The notes beneath the pieces were generated by a model. The model did no database searches and had not been told where the DNA came from. It saw nothing but the letters and a program-made list of their open reading frames with translations. Shown in pieces: positions 1 to 11,307 of a DNA stretch of 20,000 nucleotides. The number at the start of each line of letters is the position of its first letter. Within the stretch, counting starts at the first letter, position 1. The translations under genes and the position numbers were made by a program. The stretch comes from Microthyrium microscopicum (taxonomy: Eukaryota). Location of the stretch: assembly GCA_010405405.1 (NCBI GenBank), contig MU004236.1, forward strand, positions 976,405-996,404. Reading direction: 5' to 3'.

Positions 1-404
1 ACTCTACACCTTCTGGACATCTGTCATCGCCTTCTCTAGAGCTTCTCCTGTTCTTTTTTATATCTAGACCTGTCGGTGTGCTACCTGAATGCCGCCAAAC
101 TACCTTGCGACCACCAATCCTACCACGAAGAACACATCTCCAGAAGCTTCCGAGGCCATACAATACAATTCTCAATCGAACCTCGCCTTACCTTTGGAAT
201 CGACATCGCACAATAAAGCCTGTCTGCAGCAGGAACCTCCTTCCCGTCGCAATCGTAGTTGCGATCGTTAAGAACCTATAAGCCTCGGGGCGCAAAGACT
301 CCTTTTTATACAGCCGCGAGTCTCACGATATGCTGCGAGTTGCACAATCGTTTTTGCTGTAATCACCCATGAGAAATTGAGATCCACCTTCTTTGATCTT
401 CAAG

Positions 405-3400
405 ATGGCAGAGCAAGAAGAGAAGCCACATCTTCCACCGCCATCCTCAGAGACGGATGATGAGTCGGAGGAAAATGCTGGGAACATGCACATCGGGGAT
501 TCAGTAGAGCAGAATGGTCAGGCCGAACACTCGGATGAGCCATCGAGCGAAATGATGGAGAAGGTTCAAGAGGTCGAAGCTTCTCCGTCGAATGGAACTC
601 AGCTATCGCCTACGTCCATGTCACGACCGCCCCAAATATCGCAAGAAAAGTTTACCGAAATCATAATATCTCCTCCACCAACTCCTCACCCACAGCCGCC
701 TCTTACTAGAGCCCGAAGCGATTCACAATCAACCCTCGCCACGGTGTCTTCCCTTCGTCCCATTCCAAAGAGTTCGCTCCTGTTCGTGGTGAGCTCATTA
801 GAGTCGATATCCGCCTCCAAAGACGCACGGAAAAACAAAGAACTCAACGACTCGGTACAGAAAGCTCTTGCGGTTATCAAAGGGGACGGTCCGCATGACC
901 AGTTGAATCCGGAACTTTTATTCGAACCTTTACAACTAGCCTCTCAAACTCCGAACGTCCAAGTCGTTACAACCGCTCTCGACTGTATTGGAAAGCTGAT
1001 CAGTTACTCCTATTTTTCGTTGCCAGCCCATGGATCGGAAGATAAAGATGGCCCACCACTTATTGAGCGAGCCATAGACACGATATGCGATTGCTTCCAG
1101 GACGAAGCAACACCCGTAGAAACACAACTTCAAATCGTCAAATCACTTTTGTCAGCTATTTTGAATGATAAAATTGTTGTTCATGGTGCCGGTCTTCTCA
1201 AAGCGGTACGGATGACTTACAACATCTTTCTGTTATCGAAATCAAGTGCCAATCAAACCGTTGCGCAAGGCGCTTTAACGCAGATGGTTGGAACAGTCTT
1301 TGAAAGGGTGAAATACAGACTTGACTTGAAAGAGTCTCGTATAAACACGCAGAAGCCTGGTCTTGAAAGAGATAGTCAGGAGGATGTATCTGAGTCGGAC
1401 ATCAACCATGATCATATTCCTCACATCCAATCTTCAAATGGAAATGGTGACATGGACGATGATACAGAGACGGTTTCTTCAATGCCTAGCGATACCCCTG
1501 TTGAGAAACATGAGGGACCCAAAATCACTCTACAGAGTTTCGAGAACAGAAAGAGTTTTGACGACGGTAAAATAACCGAAGCTGCTCCAACTCTTGTAAC
1601 TCGAGTAAAGCGCACAAAGACGGCTTCTCGTAACGTGTCAGGTCATGACAGGAATGGCAGTGGAACTCCTGTTCCACAAGACGCGAACTCCGAGGACGAA
1701 GAGGATGAGATTTATATTCGCGACGCATATCTGGTTTTCAGAGCTATGTGTCGACTAACCACAAAACCTCTCCCAATGGAACATGCTCTTGATGTCAAGT
1801 CTCAAGGAATGAGGTCGAAGCTAGTCTCTCTGCACATCATTTACACCATTCTGTCAAACCACACTGCAGTGTTCACCTCGCCATATGCGACAATTCGAAA
1901 CAGCAGTACTGATGAGCCAACATCTTTCGTTCAGGCCATCAAGCAATATCTCTGCTTGAGCTTAAGCCGGAACGGAGCGAGCTCCGTCAAACCAGTCTTC
2001 GAGATCAGCTGTGAGATATTCTGGTTGATGATCAAGTTATTGAGAGTGATGTTGAAAAAGGAGATTGAAGTCTTCTTGAAAGAAATATACTTCTCTATCC
2101 TTGAAAAAAGAGCTGCTCCAGTCTGGCAGAAAACCACAATCCTCGGCATGTTTTACAAACTCTCTTTGGAACCAAGGGCTCTGGTGGAGGTTTATCTCAA
2201 TTACGATTGCGACAGGACAGCATTGGATAACATGTTCGAAAGAATTGTAGAACATCTCTCTAGGATGTCTTCCTCCCAAGTTTCTCTTACCCCAGTGCAA
2301 ATGGCCGCATATCTCGAGCACACTGCCAAATATGGTTCTCATTCATTCGACAAAAGTCGGCGAAATCTCCCACCATCCTTGGCCACTGTCTCAATGCATG
2401 CGCAGCAAGATTCAGATCTTGGTTATCCAGCAGAGTATGCCATGAAGCACGATTCTTTAGAGATTCTTGTCGAGATTTTACGCTCACTCGTGGCTTGGGC
2501 ACAAGGTTTATCGCAGATGGAGCTGCAGACCAATTCTTCCAGTACTCTAGCGAAACCTTCGGCCAACGATTCAAGAGAGTCCCTAGATCGTCGTGAGAGT
2601 AGCTTAACTTTACCTTCTCCACGGATCGGAACAGATTCGCCTATTGGCTTGTCGAGCCCGATGACAGAAGACGATCCAAGTCAGTTTGATCGAGAAAAAC
2701 AACGAAAGACAGCGATGGCTAGCGCAATAAAGCAGTTCAACTTTAAGCCAAAACGAGGCATCAGATCTTTGATCAAAGATGGTTTCATCACATCAGATAA
2801 CCCCGAAGACATTGCCCGGTTCCTTCTTGGCAATGAACAACTCAACAAGGCTGCACTGGGTGAATACCTCGGGGAAGGCGACAAGGAAAATGTCGAAATT
2901 ATGCACGCCTTCGTTGAGCTCATGGAATTTCGACAAACCCGTTTCGTTGATGCATTACGCCGCTTCTTACAATCTTTCAGACTTCCAGGAGAGGCCCAGA
3001 AAATTGATCGTTTCATGCTCAAATTTGCTGAAAGATATATTCTCGGGAATCCAAACGCTTTTGCCAATGCAGACACAGCATATGTTCTTGCGTATTCTGT
3101 TGTCATGCTCAACACTGATCAGCACAGTGCTAACGTAAAAGACACTAATCGAATGACACCAGAGGATTTCATCAAGAACAATCGAGGCATCAATGACAAT
3201 GCAGACTTGCCAGAAGACTACCTTCGCGGCATCTACGATGACATTCAGCATAACGAAATTGTTCTCGACACTGAACGCGAGAATGCCGCAAATCTGGGCT
3301 TATTGCCTCAGCCTTCTGCCTCATTGGCCGCTACAATTGGCCAAGCTGTTGTCAACGCAGGTAGAGATAACAAACGGGAAGAGTACGCTCAAACGGAACA

Positions 3401-6400
3401 AATAGCCAATCGTACTGAACAACTGTACAAGACCTTGCTTCGGGCTCAAAGGAAGGGTACTAAAATCCAGGTCACCAAATTCGTTCCTGCATCGTCATTC
3501 AAACACATTGGACCAATGTTCCAGGTCACTTGGATGCCATTCTTGACAGCACTATCTGGAGCAGCGCAGAACACCAATGACATTGAAACAGTTCGTCTCT
3601 GTATGGAAGGCCAAAAGCTTGCAATCCGAATTGCATGTCTCTTCGACCTTGCAGATCCCCGCCAAGCTTTTGTATCATCCCTAGCACGATTTACCAATCT
3701 TTACAACCTCAGCGAGATGAAGGCCCGAAACCTGGAGGCTCTGAAAGTGCTACTTGAGGTATCATATACAGAGGGCAACTTCTTGAACGATTCCTGGAGA
3801 GATGTCCTCACCTGCATCAGTCAACTCGATCGATTCCAACTGATATCTACTGGCGTGGATGAAGGCGTTGTTCCTGATATGATGCGGCACCACGGACAAG
3901 GAAAGGCACCGCCAAAACCAAAACGAGCCGCGAAATCGCAGCGAAAGATCCAGAGCGGAAACGTCAACTACCAAGCTGATATTGCAGAAGAGACTCGCTC
4001 CGCAGATATTGTCCGTAGTGTGGACCGCATATTCACTAACACTGCAAATCTTTCTGGAGAAGCAATTCTTCACTTCGTCAAAGCCCTTACACAAGTTTCC
4101 TGGCAAGAAATACAATCTTCGGGTCAGAGCGAGTCGCCGCGGACATATAGTCTGCAAAAGCTCGTGGAAATCAGCGCTTACAACATGACCCGAGTGAGAT
4201 TCCAGTGGGCCAATATCTGGCAAGTCTTGGGAGCGCATTTCAACCAAGTGGGTTGCCATACAAACACACATGTGGTTTATTTCGCCCTCGATTCGCTGCG
4301 CCAATTGTCGATGAAGTTCTTGGAGATTGAAGAGCTTCCTGGTTTCAAATTTCAAAAGGATTTCTTGAAGCCATTTGAGCATATCATCGGAAATTCCACG
4401 GTCGTGGCAGTGAAAGACATGGTGTTGAGATGTCTCATTCAGATGATACAAGCAAGAGGAGAGAACATTCGCAGTGGCTGGCGTACTATGTTTGGCGTTT
4501 TTACTGTTGCTGCTCGCGAACCTTACGGTATGTTTTATCCAATATACAGTGAATTTCCGCTAATTCCTCGTAGAAAATATCGTTAACTTGGCTTATGACC
4601 ACGTTACCCAAGTTTACAATAATCGATTCGGCGTTGTAATTTCCCAAGGAGCATTCGCTGATCTTGTCGTCTGCTTGACGCAGTTTTCTAAGAATCAGAA
4701 GTTTCAGCGGAAAGCTCTTCAAGCAATTGAAGCACTCAAATCCTCTGTTGGTAAAATGCTTCGAACACCGGAATGCCCCTTGTCGGTCAGGAGAATTAAG
4801 AACGGTGATGGCACCGATGACTCAAAACCTGACTCGCCGCCGATCTCTCAAACACAAGAAGAACAGTTCTGGTTCCCAGTTCTCTTCGCCTTCCATGATG
4901 TTTTGATGACAGGGGATGATCTCGAGGTCCGGTCACTGTAAGTTTCTTCCATTTCTCTCCGCGTGTGGTATCTAACCTCATCCAGGGCGCTGAATTATTT
5001 GTTCGAAACCTTGTTGACTTACGGCGGAGATTTTCCCTTGGATTTCTGGGATACTCTTTGGCGACAGCTGCTCTATCCCATCTTTATGGTATTGAGATCC
5101 AAGTCTGAAATGTCCAAAGTCGTCAATCATGAAGAACTCTCTGTTTGGTTATCAACAACCATGATTCAAGCTCTTCGGAACATGATAACACTGTTCACGC
5201 ACTTCTTCCATTCATTGGAATATATGCTAGATAGATTCCTGGAACTTCTCATTCTCTGCATTTGTCAAGAGAACGACACGCTGGCTCGCATTGGCAGCAA
5301 CTGTTTACAACAGCTCATCCTTCAGAACGTCAGCAAGTTCAACGATGAAGACTGGAACAAGACAGTAACAGCTTTTGTTGAGCTTTTCAACCGCACGGAA
5401 GCCACCGCACTTTTCGCTGCAGCGACAGCATCCGCCTTTACACCACGGAGACCGTCTGTAAATGGCGGAACTCCACATGCGCCGTCGACTGAGGCAGATG
5501 CTCTCAACTCATTAACCTTGAGTACGCCTATTGCTGAAACCGAAGAGCATGGACTATCTGAGCCAAACATCGGACTTGGCATCGACACCAAATCAGACCT
5601 CGCGAGAGAAGATTGGGGCTCAATGATGGGCTCATCACAAAACACCGACCAACCAGCCGATGACGACGGTGCTTTGACATCAGGAGAGCGACCTCAAACG
5701 CCAGCAACCGCATCCGCCGATCTAGAATCCTATCGCCCATCATCCTCCCAACAATCAACCCCCGTCCCAGTCACAGCCGCCCGACGCCGCTTCTTCAACC
5801 AAATTATCACCCAATGTGTCCTCACCCTCCTCATGATCGAAACTGTCAACGAGCTCTTCAGCAATGACACGGTCTACGCCCAAATTCCATCCCCCGAACT
5901 CCTCCGCCTCATGGCCCTTCTCAAAAAATCATACCACTTTGCCCGAAAATTCAACAGCGATCGCGAACTACGCACCCGTCTCTTCAAAGAAGGCTTCATG
6001 AAGCAACCACCTAACCTCCTCAAACAAGAATCTGGCGCTGCTGCCACCTACGTCGCCATCCTACTTCGCATGTACCACGATTCTAATCCCGCACGCGTCA
6101 ATTCTCGTTCAGCCACAGAAGCCGCGCTAGTGCCGCTTTGCGCAGACATCCTCAAGAGCTATCTGGATCTTGATGATGAGACGCAAGCACGCAACATTCT
6201 GACTTGGCGGCCCGTCGTAGTGGATGTGCTGGACGGGTATTCGAGCTTTGCGAGGCCAGAGTTTGAGAAACATATGCCGACGTTTTCACCACTTATTGTT
6301 GGGCTGCTGGGACGTGAAATGACGCCGGAGTTTCAGTTGACGCTGCAGCGTGTGGTGGCGAAGTTGTTTGAGTATAGTATTGGGGTGGATTGTAGTACTC

Positions 6401-6447
6401 ATTTGGTACAGGTTGAGCATGGGAGGAGGAGTAGTAGAGGTCGGTAA
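405..6447 (+). CDS. SEC7: Sec7/BIG-family large Arf guanine-nucleotide exchange factor; exons 405-4527, 4574-4937, 4986-6447 (5949 nt, about 1982 aa)
   Basis: Recognised motifs: DCB region (ALDCIGKLISY), HUS box (YLNYDCD), Sec7 catalytic motif FRLPGEAQKIDRFM with the Glu finger at 2991-2993, YVLAYSVVMLNTDQH, HDS motifs (FSL/YSLQKLVEI, IRSGWRTMF) and C-terminal PPNLLKQES. Intron 4528-4573 (GTATGT..GCTAAT..TAG) and intron 4938-4985 (GTAAGT..CTAAC..CAG) join the three ORFs in frame (REPY|ENIVNLAYD; EVRSL|ALNYLF). First ATG is at 405 (the track's 393 start is TTG). Confidence 0.97.
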
Positions 6448-6711
6448 AGGCATGAAGCGGATGTCGGAATTATGCATAGCATTTAGGAGCGTACTTGAGT
6501 GTAACCTATTGAGCATTTACTTACAATGTGCTTGCATGTTAAGGTCAATGTGCTTCGGTCCTTGCCAGGAGATACCAAAACAGGACCGTGTTAGTAAACT
6601 CACAGCGATTGGATGTATCCAACATGAAGAAGTCAGTCTTAGCCAAGCCATAAAGACCAGAATTGGGGTTTTCTTAGAATGAAGATGATGATATAATCAA
6701 TAATGATATAG

Positions 6712-8155
6712 CTAATGTCTAAAAAGGGAACAGTTATAAATAGCACTAGCAGTTCGATCTATGGTGACATCTTTGAACAAAGACCTAAATATGAAAGAGC
6801 AAAGCAGCCCGACTACGAGAATCTGCAAGGTGAAAGATAACGGCAAAAACACTTGAATCGTCGCGTCGTTCTCAGCCGAAGCTGGGCAAGGGTGGCTCCG
6901 CCATCTCATAGCATAATCCTTAGCCAACTTCTGACGTCGAGTTGTCCTGTCCTTCCAGTAGTCTATGATGGCCCTTTCGGGACCAATAATGACGATTTCT
7001 GAATTGGCGCCTAGATTCTCGCAGGTGGTATATTGCAAAAATGATATTCTTTTCGCGGGCAGTTCGTCATGCTTAATTGTGATCAGGCTGTGTAACTCAG
7101 AAGCGATAGTTTTCAATGCTTCGATATCGTCTGAACTGCCGTCTATATGGAATCGAAGATCCAATATCCTGGACTTGGAAGACTTTGATATTGACGGCTC
7201 TACAGTATCTCCTGTTGATGCGAAATCGAACTTCATAGGGGCAAGAACGATACGGTCAAAACTTGCAACTTCTCGCTCCCCTAGAACTGGCATTTGGTCT
7301 TTGGGAAAGTCAGGAGCTTTGCATATTTGACTCCTTAGTTGAGCCGTATGGAACCATCCTGGTGGTTTTGTTTTCAGCTCCTTCAGTGCCCAGATTAGTG
7401 CTTTTGTAAATGTTCCGTTACCACGAGCCCTTGTTAACTGTCCAGCGGGACAAGCGGCGAGGTATTCAAATCGGGGTGTACCTCGCGTTTGGAAAGTAGC
7501 GCCAGCATCGCAACAGTCGAAGATTGCAAGAACATCTCCATTCAAGCCACGGCCCAAGGTCTCAGTAATTGCCCAGTTGATAGATTGTGTTTTAGCATTT
7601 CGCAACGCTCTCACGGTTCTTTCACTGCTTGTAATCAGTGCCTATAGCTATCATGATCGATCTTGATGTAATGCGTACCGATGAAGAGTCAAGCCCTTTC
7701 TGTTTTCCGTATCTCCACAAGGCTCTGAGTACCACCCATGGCCACCGTAGTAGAAGATGAGTAAAGTGTCATCATCGTCGTGATCGTCGACAAATTCGGC
7801 TACATGACGGTTGATTTTCTGCTGAGGCTTATCATTACCAATGAGTCTCTGCACAACCACAAACTGATATTCTTCCTTGAAGACAGTTTTCAGTTCTTCG
7901 ACCTAATTCAGCTTAATATGCTTTCTGAAGAGGAACATGTGTGCACTAGAATACCTCCGCTCTGTCTATATCCGAGTTCTCCCAGGAAAGTAGCAGAACA
8001 ACTATCTTTGTGTATCGAATAAGCCTCTTGTTATTCATAACGTTGTCCTCCCACATCATATTGTAATGCGACTGTTTCTTCTGGAACTCTGCTTCGGATT
8101 CTATAGGGGTGCCATCTCCCTGTAAAGACACGACGGGTCGGGCCATGGACGCCAT
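6712..8155 (-). CDS. Caspase/metacaspase-like (peptidase C14 clan CD) protein with C-terminal hydrophobic segment; exons 8155-7955, 7902-7679, 7624-6712 (about 445 aa)
   Basis: Intron 7954-7903 (GTATTC..TAG) and intron 7678-7625 (GTACGC..CTGAT..CAG) join three ORFs in frame (DRAE|VEELKTVFKEEY; TLHR|ERTVRAL). Motifs: VLLLSW, LLIFYYGGHG (His codon 7740-7738), AIFDCCDAG (Cys 7512-7510), EYLAAC, GTFTKALI. C-terminal IQVFLPLSFTLQILVVGLLCSFIF is hydrophobic. The start could also be the ATG at 8146. Confidence 0.82.
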
Positions 8156-9198
8156 GTAGGTATTATTCTGCCAGGTTTGAGCCCGGTCTATACCAGAGCG
8201 TTGAAGCGAGGAGTAACGAGACAGGGAGATGTACCTTGTCATATGGGGCTTGGACTGATTATATTCCCTGAGGGTAAGGTAACCTTTGAAAGTCGAATTC
8301 ATCTCTATGTGCCTCATGACAGCCAGTAAGTAATGGCTAAGCCCCACAGGATCAAGAACTAGGTAGCGTCAATAATTTAGTACCATGCAGTAGAATGAGG
8401 CTCATTCTCAGAGTGTAGGGATATGCCAAGACTAGATACGGACAGCTCACAAGGCTGTTTTTACCGTTTGCGTTTCTTGGATGTCATCAATCTCATTTTT
8501 ATTATGCAAGGCTACCCAAGTCTTGGACATGGGCTTACCAGGCAAGATCCTCAGAGCCTATTGATCAAGTCTTCTCCTGTCTGATGAGCTTTTATAACGA
8601 AAAGCGGTTCTGCGTTTCGGTTGCACTGTGATGTTGAGAACTTGGGACCAACGACCCGTTTTTTGCTGCTTGAGTGAAGCCTCTTACATCATTGACCTGA
8701 ATACTCTATCCATAGCTAAGAGTGTTACCTACTGCTCAAGCAATGGCTTAGATTGAGCGATAACATACAGGCGAACATCCTCCATATCATTTCTTGAGCT
8801 AGCCAGAATACTTGGAACGTCAAGTTCGCCTCTTACATACCACTAGAATGTGTCCCAACCAACCTAGTATCGAGAGTTTCCACATTGTCAAAGGTAGTGA
8901 ATAACAACCTTGTCAGGTATCCGATACAACGTAGGCGGGCGGCTCATATTGTAGGCCACTGACTCACTGAGTGAGTTGCCTATTTGCCTGTTTCCAGTCT
9001 TCACCGAGGTAATGACATTACCCGCAAACCTGATAGAATAACATAAAATGGCGATAGAACAGTCTGTAATAGTACCATCCGGTGTCTCGCCTCAGAAAGC
9101 TAATGTCAAGTAAGCCTTGAGCGACGATACTAGATTTTGACATATTCCATCCAATCAAACGCAACACGAAAAGGTCCCCACAACCTTCCTGCATTAGC
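8156..9198. promoter_or_regulatory. Divergent intergenic region (candidate bidirectional promoter) with a TGACTCA site overlapping a palindrome
   Basis: Lies between the start codons at 8155 (-) and 9199 (+). TGACTCA at 8960-8966 overlaps the inverted repeat ACTCACT-G-AGTGAGT at 8962-8976. Confidence 0.4.
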
Positions 9199-9600
9199 AT
9201 GTCCGCCCCGCCAAAAGTACGAAAGCGGAAATCTGCCTTATGTCGATGATGCGCTAAACTTCTTTTAAAGGAACAAACTTCCTCCGAGGCTGCCGGCGGC
9301 AGTCCTCCAGATTGGCGAGCCTATGTACCTCCACGCCAGCCCAGGAACGTAAGTCTCCTTCTTCTGTACTCGCGAACCGAAGTGAACTTGTCTGATTTTC
9401 TGTGTCAGAGAACTGCGAAATTCAGTGTTGGAGACGAAATTACTGTGAAGCCAACGTTGGCTCGCTTTGCTATAGATGGAGAAGTTACTGCCAGAAAGGA
9501 AGAGAATGGGTATTGGATGTATCAGGTGAAGGACGATTTAGGTGAAAGCATTGATATGGGAGCGTATCTGAAAGAAAGAGAACTGAGTCGTCGGTCCTAA
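9199..9600 (+). CDS. 95-aa microprotein with probable SH3/Tudor-like beta-barrel; exons 9199-9216, 9271-9348, 9409-9600
   Basis: ATG at 9199. Intron 9217-9270 (GTACGA..GCTAAA..AAG) and intron 9349-9408 (GTAAGT..CTGAT..CAG) are both phase 0. The product is MSAPPK|EQTSSEAAGGSPPDWRAYVPPRQPRN|RTAKFSVGDEITVKPTLARFAIDGEVTARKEENGYWMYQVKDDLGESIDMGAYLKERELSRRS*. The pattern F-x-VGD-x-V...G-x-V...W-x-Y-x-V...E-x-EL is typical of SH3-like/Tudor folds. Exon 1 is the least certain part. Confidence 0.72.
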
Positions 9601-9622
9601 TAAAAGATGGCAGCTTTATGGC

Positions 9623-9654
9623 TATGAACAATCAATATTATGAACAATCAATAT
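9623..9654. repeat. Perfect 16-bp tandem duplication (TATGAACAATCAATAT x2)
   Basis: Read directly: 9623-9638 equals 9639-9654. Confidence 0.9.
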
Positions 9655-10005
9655 TTTGCACAAAAACTTGTCTTCCCAGGCAGCATACACTTGCCTCCAT
9701 CGATCATCGTGTTTATGTATGATTGGATGCTCATCTCTGTAGTGTTCATTAGGAACAAAATCGCAGGGCATCTTCGGCCATCCAATCAGTAGCTTCAGAG
9801 AGAATGCACAACGCCACATGAGGAATATCATACATACCGAAATCAAGCCTGATGATGAGAGGGTGGGCATACTTGAAGCTTGAGGCTCGAGATACCATGG
9901 ACCGGTCAATTGCCTGGACTTCGTATAAATACCTCAGCATTCTTCCCACCAGATCTTGATTGACAACGATCTAGTCCTCAATATCTTCAATACTCTCTGG
10001 TCGGG

Positions 10006-11307
10006 ATGGCAGATATCATCACGATTGCAAATGCTGGAGAAAAAGGTCATTCAAATAGTTTACCCCTTACTACATCGTCAACCGCGCCATCAGGATCTCA
10101 AAGGCTATGGAGGTCAGCAACTTCTTTTACCAGTATCAAACAGCTATGGAGTGGCGCTTTTTCCAAAAGTAGCACAGACTCGAATCTAAGTGAGTTACCA
10201 GCTCATAAGCCCAGAAATAGTCGATGGGGTATCAAAAAAGTCGACTTGGAAGAGACTGTGGTGCGTAAACGTAAGCATGAAGTACTCAAGACACCAAACA
10301 TGGACTAATGTCTATAGTTGAAGCATGTCCAAACGGATATCCTCGTATGGGAGCATTCTTAGACAGCCACGAAAACTTTATGATATACCGGCGGTTTGGA
10401 TACCTTCAAGCTCGGTTGCTTCTTGACAGACAAGACGACCTCCGTAAACTTGAAGAGTCATTAGACATGTTTGACCAGGAAATACATGCGGGCAAGGATG
10501 GAGCCGCACATATTCAGACTAGGGATTTGCCCAAGGCTATAGGCGAGTCTCGGAGAGAGCTGATGGCCAAGATTGAAGACGCATTCTGCGAATACTGTAC
10601 GTTACGATCTACCAAAACACCCCCAATCATTGTTCAATCAACTTATGGCTCCAAGGCTAATGATGTGGGCATAGCAAGGCTATTATCTGCGGCTCAAACG
10701 CTAGTTTCCCTTAATCGTCCTGCTCAAGCAGATCATGTTAGTGTCAAAAACTTCATTGTGGGCGAGAGGCCATTTTGTGAAGAAGAAGAAACTTGGATTG
10801 ACTGTAAGGAAGATTTGATAACATTAAGACCTGGCAGAGAGCATGCTTGGCTTGACGCAGTGATCGAGTATCTTCTTAGAGGACTACATTGCCGACTGAT
10901 TGAGTTCATCTTTTGTTCTAAAGTAAGTTTCAATGGTACTAGGTTTTGGCAGTGATTAAGATGCAGTTTAGGAAATAAAGATGAAAACAGATGGTCGGCC
11001 ACCAAGCAGTGAGGTATATTACACACAATCACGGATTGACCAGCTGGTCACAGGCATCATAACGATCATGATACTAGTACTGCTGATTGTTCCAATTTAT
11101 CTGCTATACCACCTGGCTAGTGGACGCGATAATCAACGAACACAAGCCGTATGCTTCGGCGTATTGTTGCTGTCAACTCTGGCATTTTCTGCTGTTCTGT
11201 CTTTGTTTACGAGGGCGAGACGACATGAGATACTAGGTGCTGCAGCGGCTTATTGTGCAGTCTTGGTTGTATTTTTGGGCAATGTCGGTTTGAATCAGCC
11301 GCATTAG
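10006..11307 (+). CDS. DUF6594-type fungal membrane protein (about 3 C-terminal TM helices); exons 10006-10270, 10318-10596, 10675-10922, 10972-11307 (about 375 aa)
   Basis: Introns 10271-10317 (GTAAGC..ACTAAT..TAG), 10597-10674 (GTACGT..GCTAAT..TAG) and 10923-10971 (GTAAGT..TAG) give a continuous frame. It contains CPNGYPRMGAF, FMIYRRFGYLQARLLLDRQDDLRKLEESLD, EDLITL, three hydrophobic helices and the terminal EILGAAAAYCAVLVVFLG, which I recall as characteristic of DUF6594. Confidence 0.85.

Follow-up and report, generated by a model that had tools for sequence, protein, structure and literature searches.

A metacaspase-like protease, a Tudor-like microprotein and a DUF6594 membrane protein are encoded together in a conserved three-gene module of filamentous ascomycetes

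Introduction

Genes for gasdermin homologues are frequently found close to protease genes. Clave et al. 2022 (PMC8851545), in the excerpts consulted, found a protease gene within 10 kb of 80% of 1,884 gasdermin homologues; for 19% of them, a CHAT protease, of the caspase clan, is close by. In excerpts of a review on cell death in fungi published in 2025 (PMC12881547), gasdermins are paired with CHAT and S8 proteases. Here we analyse a stretch of 20,000 nucleotides (nt) from the Dothideomycete Microthyrium microscopicum, called the window throughout this text, in which positions 6712-11307 hold three genes encoding a C14 protease, a microprotein and a DUF6594 (PF20237) membrane protein.

A first, sequence-only reading of the window had proposed these three genes as a candidate system, with DUF6594 as a possible substrate or effector and the microprotein as a possible inhibitor, adaptor or sensor, and knew of no prior description of such an architecture. 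Full-text literature searches for DUF6594 and PF20237, with most subscription journals outside their scope, returned no paper. A broader search on C14 proteases, Pezizomycotina, neighbouring genes and cell death gave nothing relevant to the trio, which is also absent from those passages of the fungal cell death review that match our search terms. In agreement with that reading, we found no description of the trio as a system in the literature searched.

Results

The three genes of the window are one copy of a module that filamentous ascomycetes, among them distantly related moulds and lichens, keep within about 3 kb, and this conclusion is well supported by the loci that we collected. Using an alignment of the protease as bait, 575 pattern-matching stretches were obtained from metagenome contigs. 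Of these, 140 proved to be relatives, and the 80 best among them were taken as loci. Their six-frame translations were scanned with hidden Markov models (HMMs) built for this analysis, and the loci were collapsed at 90% nucleotide identity into 53 non-redundant groups. Nineteen groups have flanks of 3 kb or more on each side; DUF6594 is present within 3 kb of the protease in 18 of them, and the microprotein is present too in 16. Two of the three well-flanked groups that give no strict microprotein match have weak barrel-like open reading frames (ORFs) in the expected place and on the expected strand. Across all 53 groups, DUF6594 was detected in 30 and the microprotein in 27, the 34 other groups being mostly short contigs. 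The concentration of DUF6594 around the protease is also clear from its distribution along the 19 long loci, where 18 DUF6594 genes fall in the 114 kb nearest to the protease and one in the other 216 kb (binomial p = 6e-8). That single distal gene is a tandem second copy. The lone well-flanked group without DUF6594, L079, has a weak partial match to the protease.

In 23 of 24 cases the microprotein gene lies directly upstream of DUF6594 in the same orientation, and the gap between the two domains, measured from where the microprotein domain ends to where that of DUF6594 begins, varies little (median 595 nt, range 484-1048). The only exception is the clade of L060, L061, L062 and L078, where the microprotein faces the protease, about 0.7 kb upstream of it on the same strand, and points away from DUF6594. 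A second and more divergent DUF6594 copy was observed about 5 kb upstream of the protease in L017 (positions 3681-5257, plus strand) and also in L020; no microprotein match precedes the tandem copy in either locus.

Genes around the trio were examined by a Pfam scan of the flanks in the 19 loci, covering 103 long ORF pieces. The neighbours differ from locus to locus, save in one related, syntenic pair of loci, and include Sof1/RPN6, HET, PEX6/lipase, PGK/Iml2, PKS, a Brr2-type helicase, anoctamin and others. Apart from that syntenic pair, the scan found no fourth gene shared across the loci. Since the flanking genes differ, the linkage is not plain synteny.

Moreover, the linkage has survived rearrangement. 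All four relative orientations occur, with at least seven changes on the protease tree (31 rows). Of the 11 well-supported clades of the DUF6594 tree (25 loci), 9 recur in the protease tree, and the other two are unresolved in it and not contradicted, so that the two trees agree at their supported nodes. Congruent trees combined with repeated changes of orientation indicate that the genes diverged together while being inverted relative to each other. The proposal that the three genes form one system is thus borne out by the co-occurrence counts, by the differing flanks, by the repeated inversions and by the congruence of the trees. The three proteins evolve at different rates: median pairwise identity is lowest for the microprotein (27%), intermediate for the protease (37%) and highest for DUF6594 (49%). 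Between DUF6594 and the microprotein, identities correlate modestly (0.37, 210 non-independent pairs).

When prokaryotic genomes were scanned with the DUF6594 alignment, one locus was obtained, L081, with a protease adjoining DUF6594; the scan gave no relative of this subfamily that is truly prokaryotic. L081 comes from a metagenome-assembled genome labelled Acidobacteriaceae, and its DUF6594 gene, followed by the protease, is interrupted by introns where the fungal genes have theirs. Because that gene carries introns, L081 is almost certainly a fungal contig binned into a bacterial genome.

A search with the last DUF6594 exon gave 112 relatives, and four single gene models, three from lichens and one from Coniosporium apollinis, join the same protease family to DUF6594. 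The lichen models (P0101, P0125 and P0105) are ab initio predictions 800-890 amino acids (aa) long and carry protease, microprotein and DUF6594 in this order on one strand. The stretch between their two larger domains aligns weakly with the window microprotein (E = 0.028 in one pairwise comparison). As these linkers differ in each species, the joined models are probably annotation artefacts in which neighbouring genes were merged, and thus they attest adjacency and shared orientation and not a real fusion protein. P0135, P0130 and P0143 likewise look merged, and some DUF6594 models are joined to an amidase or to an unrelated C-terminal part.

Gene models of the window trio were built by reading both strands of positions 6500-11500 and translating the candidate exons (Table 1). 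The protease gene, on the minus strand, stands head-to-head with the microprotein and DUF6594 genes, both on the plus strand. In the public run X1, the sole run listed for this stretch and not recorded as RNA, a single contig of 11,347 nt covers window positions 6400-11600 with exactly seven joints, and all seven coincide with predicted introns, each GT..AG on the coding strand. Such joints identify run X1 as derived from RNA; the gene models of the trio are right, and all three genes are transcribed and spliced. At the second protease intron there is a NAGNAG acceptor (7624-7629, minus strand), whose downstream AG is used both by the X1 contig and by the public protein P0001, so that the exon starts at 7624; use of the upstream AG would add one Ser. 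X1 consists of assembled contigs and is silent on expression level, on transcript ends and on whether microprotein and DUF6594 share a messenger RNA. Its contig spans both intergenic stretches of the locus and extends into the neighbouring Sec7/BIG-type gene, which, for an assembled contig, is not proof of one transcript. Overlapping or read-through transcription, including a dicistronic microprotein-DUF6594 RNA, is possible. The divergent region between protease and microprotein is presumably a shared promoter region. We also considered the microprotein exons as 5' exons of DUF6594. This was ruled out in the window, where the X1 contig retains the microprotein stop codon and the spacer unspliced; with no joint between them, the two genes are separate reading frames.

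On its other side the locus is bordered by a block mutated by repeat-induced point mutation (RIP), AT-rich and extending over positions 12300-20000 (GC content 0.22, TpA/ApT 1.78, (CpA+TpG)/(ApC+GpT) 0.04), in which no ORF of at least 150 aa was found. The three spliced genes, their head-to-head arrangement and their position between the Sec7/BIG-type gene upstream and a heavily RIP-mutated block from about 12.3 kb had all been read correctly from the sequence.

Table 1. Features of the locus, numbered from the first nucleotide of the window.
Feature	Position	Strand	Basis
Metacaspase-like C14 cysteine protease gene, 499 aa	8317-7955, 7902-7679, 7624-6712 (incl. stop)	-	translation, RNA contig
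Protease introns	7903-7954, 7625-7678	-	removed in X1 contig
Catalytic His codon (His176), YYGGHG motif	7738-7740	-	invariant in 13/13 aligned family members
Asp-Cys-Cys codons (D232, C233, C234), FDCCDAG motif, holding the putative catalytic Cys	7510-7518	-	sequence reading
Hydrophobic C-terminal stretch of the protease, about 24 residues, followed by 24 more	6787-6858	-	translation
Divergent intergenic region, protease/microprotein	8318-9198		gene models; inside X1 contig
Microprotein gene, 95 aa	9199-9216, 9271-9348, 9409-9600 (incl. stop)	+	model, RNA contig
Microprotein introns	9217-9270, 9349-9408	+	removed in X1 contig
Tudor/SH3-like five-strand beta-barrel domain of the microprotein (predicted)	9418-9588	+	AF2 model, HMM
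Spacer, microprotein stop to DUF6594 start, 405 nt	9601-10005	+	in X1 contig, no joint across
DUF6594 membrane protein gene, 375 aa	10006-10270, 10318-10596, 10675-10922, 10972-11307 (incl. stop)	+	model, RNA contig
DUF6594 introns	10271-10317, 10597-10674, 10923-10971	+	removed in X1 contig
Ser-rich N-terminal extension of DUF6594, exon 1, 88 aa	10006-10270	+	translation; no Pfam match; low pLDDT in the P0046 equivalent
Three predicted C-terminal transmembrane helices, R-H-E motif between helices 2 and 3	11044-11286	+	P0046 model
Sec7/BIG-type Arf guanine-nucleotide exchange factor gene, at least two long exons	381-6447	+	DCB, HUS, Sec7, HDS and BIG2_C domains

The window protease is identical (100%) to P0001, a public protein of 499 aa from Microthyrium microscopicum. 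An alternative start is present at the ATG at 8155. P0001 matches PF00656 with 33.9 bits against a cut-off of 21.4, and exon 2 by itself reaches 29.1 bits; P0125 and P0135 also match this family. Residues D232, C233 and C234 are conserved without exception in the aligned family sequences (13 of 13 and 22 of 22). The C14 assignment comes with an intact His/Cys dyad, and the protein is predicted to be a cytosolic and catalytically competent protease. Its motifs Y-Y-x-G-H-G and F-D-C-C-x-A-G presumably resemble those of metacaspases more than those of caspases, and an Asp two residues before the Cys is typical of the S1 pocket of Arg/Lys-specific metacaspases. By this analogy with metacaspases, the D-C-C motif would be compatible with a preference for a basic residue at P1.

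There is no obvious type I prodomain in the protease. PF00656 is the sole Pfam domain of P0001, with no sensor or repeat domain, and the homologues (270-515 aa) are also devoid of repeats. Some 100 aa that are conserved at the C-terminal end, together with a basic tail, belong to no known family. When the family profile was compared with PDB chains, no solved relative was found, the two matches obtained being chance ones (E about 0.2). The hydrophobic C-terminal stretch of the window protein is absent from the aligned homologues, whose tails are unrelated to it and mostly basic or acidic; it is a possible tail anchor in Microthyrium microscopicum.

Regarding the microprotein, its core of 60 aa was modelled with AlphaFold2 (AF2) as a five-strand barrel with a predicted local distance difference test (pLDDT) of 94.8. 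The top Foldseek matches of this model are Tudor domains (2dig, 6if4, PHF20, 53BP1), with TM-scores of 0.65-0.76 and E values of 0.02-0.1, and none at E <= 0.001. Within that limit, the fold agrees with the earlier description of the microprotein as SH3/Tudor-like. None of 24 family members reached a Pfam cut-off, the best score being 16.9 bits against 26.4 for Tudor_RapA, and this includes the Tudor, Agenet, chromo and SH3 profiles. With an iterated HMM, 41 of the 80 loci and the window each gave a single copy (E <= 3e-10 throughout), and an intron just 5' of the K-F start of the domain is conserved in the family. To judge from its sequences, the domain founds a real family without Pfam coverage.

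Searches outside the collected loci were less productive for this protein. In a set of 5.8 billion proteins, no word-sharing protein of 34-111 aa was found. Four representatives of any length that did match are internal-repeat proteins, with 5-12 short matched stretches, and were judged spurious. A protein atlas query returned just generic small unnamed clusters and R67 DHFR. The large protein searches returned the window protease at 100% and neither the window microprotein nor the window DUF6594 protein. The latter two are thus probably missing or mis-modelled in public annotation, as the lichen annotations that merge the trio also illustrate.

Exons 2-4 of the DUF6594 gene match PF20237 end to end (model positions 1-85, 88-155 and 159-238 of 238), and the homologue P0046 matches it with 210 bits. 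P0046, 54% identical to the window protein, was modelled with AF2 together with 59 relatives (mean pLDDT 73.9). The N-terminal extension has low confidence in this model, which also shows a long helical hairpin, a few short helices and, at the C-terminus, three long helices predicted to cross the membrane (residues 273-305, 308-333 and 338-358). The model is consistent with the about three transmembrane helices and the disordered N-terminus that had been anticipated. Basic residues precede helix 1 and sit between helices 2 and 3, which, by the positive-inside rule, suggests that the N-terminus faces the cytosol.

Conservation is highest in the membrane part, with a median pairwise identity of 53% in the transmembrane region and of 48% in the soluble part. 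Ala-x-Arg-His-Glu (P0046 336-340, window about 11200-11215) is invariant or nearly so in 60 sequences, H339 and E340 being invariant in 60 of 60, and Gln118 and Glu125 in the first long helix are similarly conserved. The motif between helices 2 and 3 might be a functional site on the cytosolic side of the membrane. No gasdermin Pfam match was found in DUF6594, and Foldseek against the PDB gave nothing at E <= 0.001. VIA returned just generic helical hairpins over residues 104-185 with Z <= 10, below the caution level of the tool for helical proteins. A protein atlas search from which PF20237 was excluded gave no usable match.

The N-terminal extension of the window protein ends in V-V-R-K (Arg codon 10264-10266), within the sequence V-V-R-K-L-E-A-C-P. 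This is an instance of a motif, [V/T/I]-R-x-[L/V/I]-E-x-C-P-x-G-Y-P, which is conserved just before the Pfam domain. Among 58 homologues, the Arg is present in 40, a preceding V/T/I in 45 and a hydrophobic residue two positions after the Arg in 57. The Ser-rich N-terminus is plausible as a cleavable region, and the motif at its end is the best candidate for a cleavage site.

Discussion

The ancient linkage of the three genes, maintained through rearrangement, provides a testable hypothesis for the protease, for the microprotein family and for DUF6594. We think that the three genes are very probably functionally coupled. Our preferred explanation is that the trio acts as a proteolysis-controlled membrane module. 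The protease would act on DUF6594 by cutting its cytosolic N-terminal extension, at the V-R motif that precedes the Pfam domain or close to it, and the cut would alter the state of the membrane protein, either its oligomerisation or a channel or pore activity. Expressed along with DUF6594, the microprotein would serve as an adaptor or as a brake. We assign a rough probability of 45% to this explanation as a whole, that is, to a three-gene module including the proteolysis-controlled membrane mechanism. That the coupling consists in cleavage of DUF6594, or of the microprotein, by the protease is, in our estimate, a little less likely than not. Regulated cell death as the output is, in our opinion, unlikely.

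Several observations weigh against a mechanism of this kind. Neither Foldseek nor VIA matches the modelled structure of DUF6594 to that of gasdermins or other pore formers, and the absence of a sensor or repeat domain in the protease leaves no trigger indicated. The Arg of the motif is missing in 18 of 58 homologues. As the slowest-evolving member of the trio, DUF6594 resembles a constrained housekeeping-type membrane protein and not a fast-evolving immune effector, and its pairwise identities are uncorrelated with those of the protease (Spearman 0.03, 210 non-independent pairs). The lichen models, being probably merged, show adjacency rather than a fusion protein. Sampling was almost wholly from the side of the protease, while DUF6594 is a large family. 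In this respect, five named species have matches among both the protease and the DUF6594 proteins listed. Both genes are on one contig in Glonium stellatum (18.7 kb) and in Bimuria (331 kb). The listed protease and DUF6594 genes of Bogoriella megaspora are 35 locus tags apart, and the listed matches of Acephala and of Halenospora lie on contigs that differ in size; paralogues, or matches beyond those listed, may explain the non-adjacency in these three. A complex prediction with the protease, DUF6594 and microprotein parts of the lichen model P0125, the microprotein being the partner, run with neither alignments nor controls, scored 0.00, which is evidence neither way.

An alternative that fits the same data nearly as well is that DUF6594 and the microprotein, as an adaptor, anchor a soluble protease at the membrane. 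Other substrates would then be cut, and DUF6594 would stay uncut and would be no effector. Linkage supports this docking role exactly as it supports cleavage of DUF6594. Besides, the conserved transmembrane region and the invariant R-H-E fit a stable structural or enzymatic partner in the membrane, the hydrophobic tail of the window protease hints that membrane location matters, and the Arg of the motif is not universal. However, docking leaves the long disordered N-terminal extension with its conserved end motif unexplained, and no candidate third-party substrate is known. We regard it as somewhat unlikely.

It could also be proposed that the trio is an allorecognition locus or a selfish toxin-antidote locus, made of a killer and a protector or het-like and dependent on alleles, whose genes stay linked as recombination would be harmful. 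Such systems typically show tight linkage that withstands rearrangement, both the microprotein and the protease are fast-evolving, and some of the surroundings are variable: the window has its RIP block, L007 a HET-domain gene, L040 a transposase and L073 a PD-(D/E)XK gene. Nevertheless, the DUF6594 and protease trees share well-supported clades, DUF6594 is strongly conserved, and many copies sit amid core genes such as those for Sec7, PEX6, RPN6, PGK and a Brr2-type helicase; we consider this explanation possible but improbable. Mere neighbourhood through inherited gene order or a shared promoter is scarcely credible: fungi do have conserved neighbouring genes that share no function, and the pairwise identities of DUF6594 and protease are uncorrelated, but 18 of 19 loci retain the pair although the flanking genes differ, and at least seven orientation changes have not separated it, with the microprotein travelling along.

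Returning to proteolytic control of DUF6594, it is tempting to extend it to a role in cell death. In that case, DUF6594 proteins would be non-gasdermin membrane executioners licensed by a protease, which would remove the extension at the V-R motif, the microprotein, perhaps translated from the same transcript as DUF6594, restraining them until triggered. We hold this version to be improbable. If true, it would add a third route of fungal regulated cell death beside the HeLo/MLKL-like and gasdermin ones. If, more generally, the protease controls DUF6594, the trio would represent a new pairing of a protease with a membrane partner in fungi, beside gasdermin/HET-Q2, and it would help to explain the role of non-canonical caspase-type proteases of fungi. 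The linkage is in addition a first functional lead for DUF6594, a large orphan family of Pfam.

The trio can be placed relative to four groups of known systems. Compared with metacaspases (C14B), the protease shares PF00656 and an invariant His and Cys set in Y-x-G-H-G and D-C-C-x-x-G motifs, whereas its Pfam match is weak (34 bits), it has no obvious type I prodomain and its C-terminal region is of no known family. Among Tudor, chromo-barrel and SH3-like domains, the modelled five-strand barrel of the microprotein core has its best matches in Tudor domains, though at E values of just 0.02-0.1 and with no Pfam Tudor, Agenet or SH3 model reached; here the domain stands alone in a protein of 95 aa with no known link to chromatin or methyl-lysine. 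Bacterial gasdermin operons, going by excerpts of Johnson et al. (bioRxiv 10.1101/2021.06.07.447441), are similar in pairing a caspase-clan protease with a membrane-active partner, but they are prokaryotic operons and their effector has a different fold. Among fungal systems, the gasdermin/HET-Q2-like clusters, such as Podospora het-Q, also keep a protease gene beside that of a membrane-acting partner, as far as the extracts consulted describe them. Most gasdermin-linked fungal proteases carry sensor repeats, according to excerpts of PMC8851545, while the protease of the trio is a small stand-alone C14 domain without TPR, WD40, ANK or NLR. Its partner is predicted to be all-helical with three transmembrane helices, in contrast to the gasdermin fold. 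In summary, the trio differs from these clusters in its protease and in its membrane partner, and it adds a third component, the Tudor-like microprotein.

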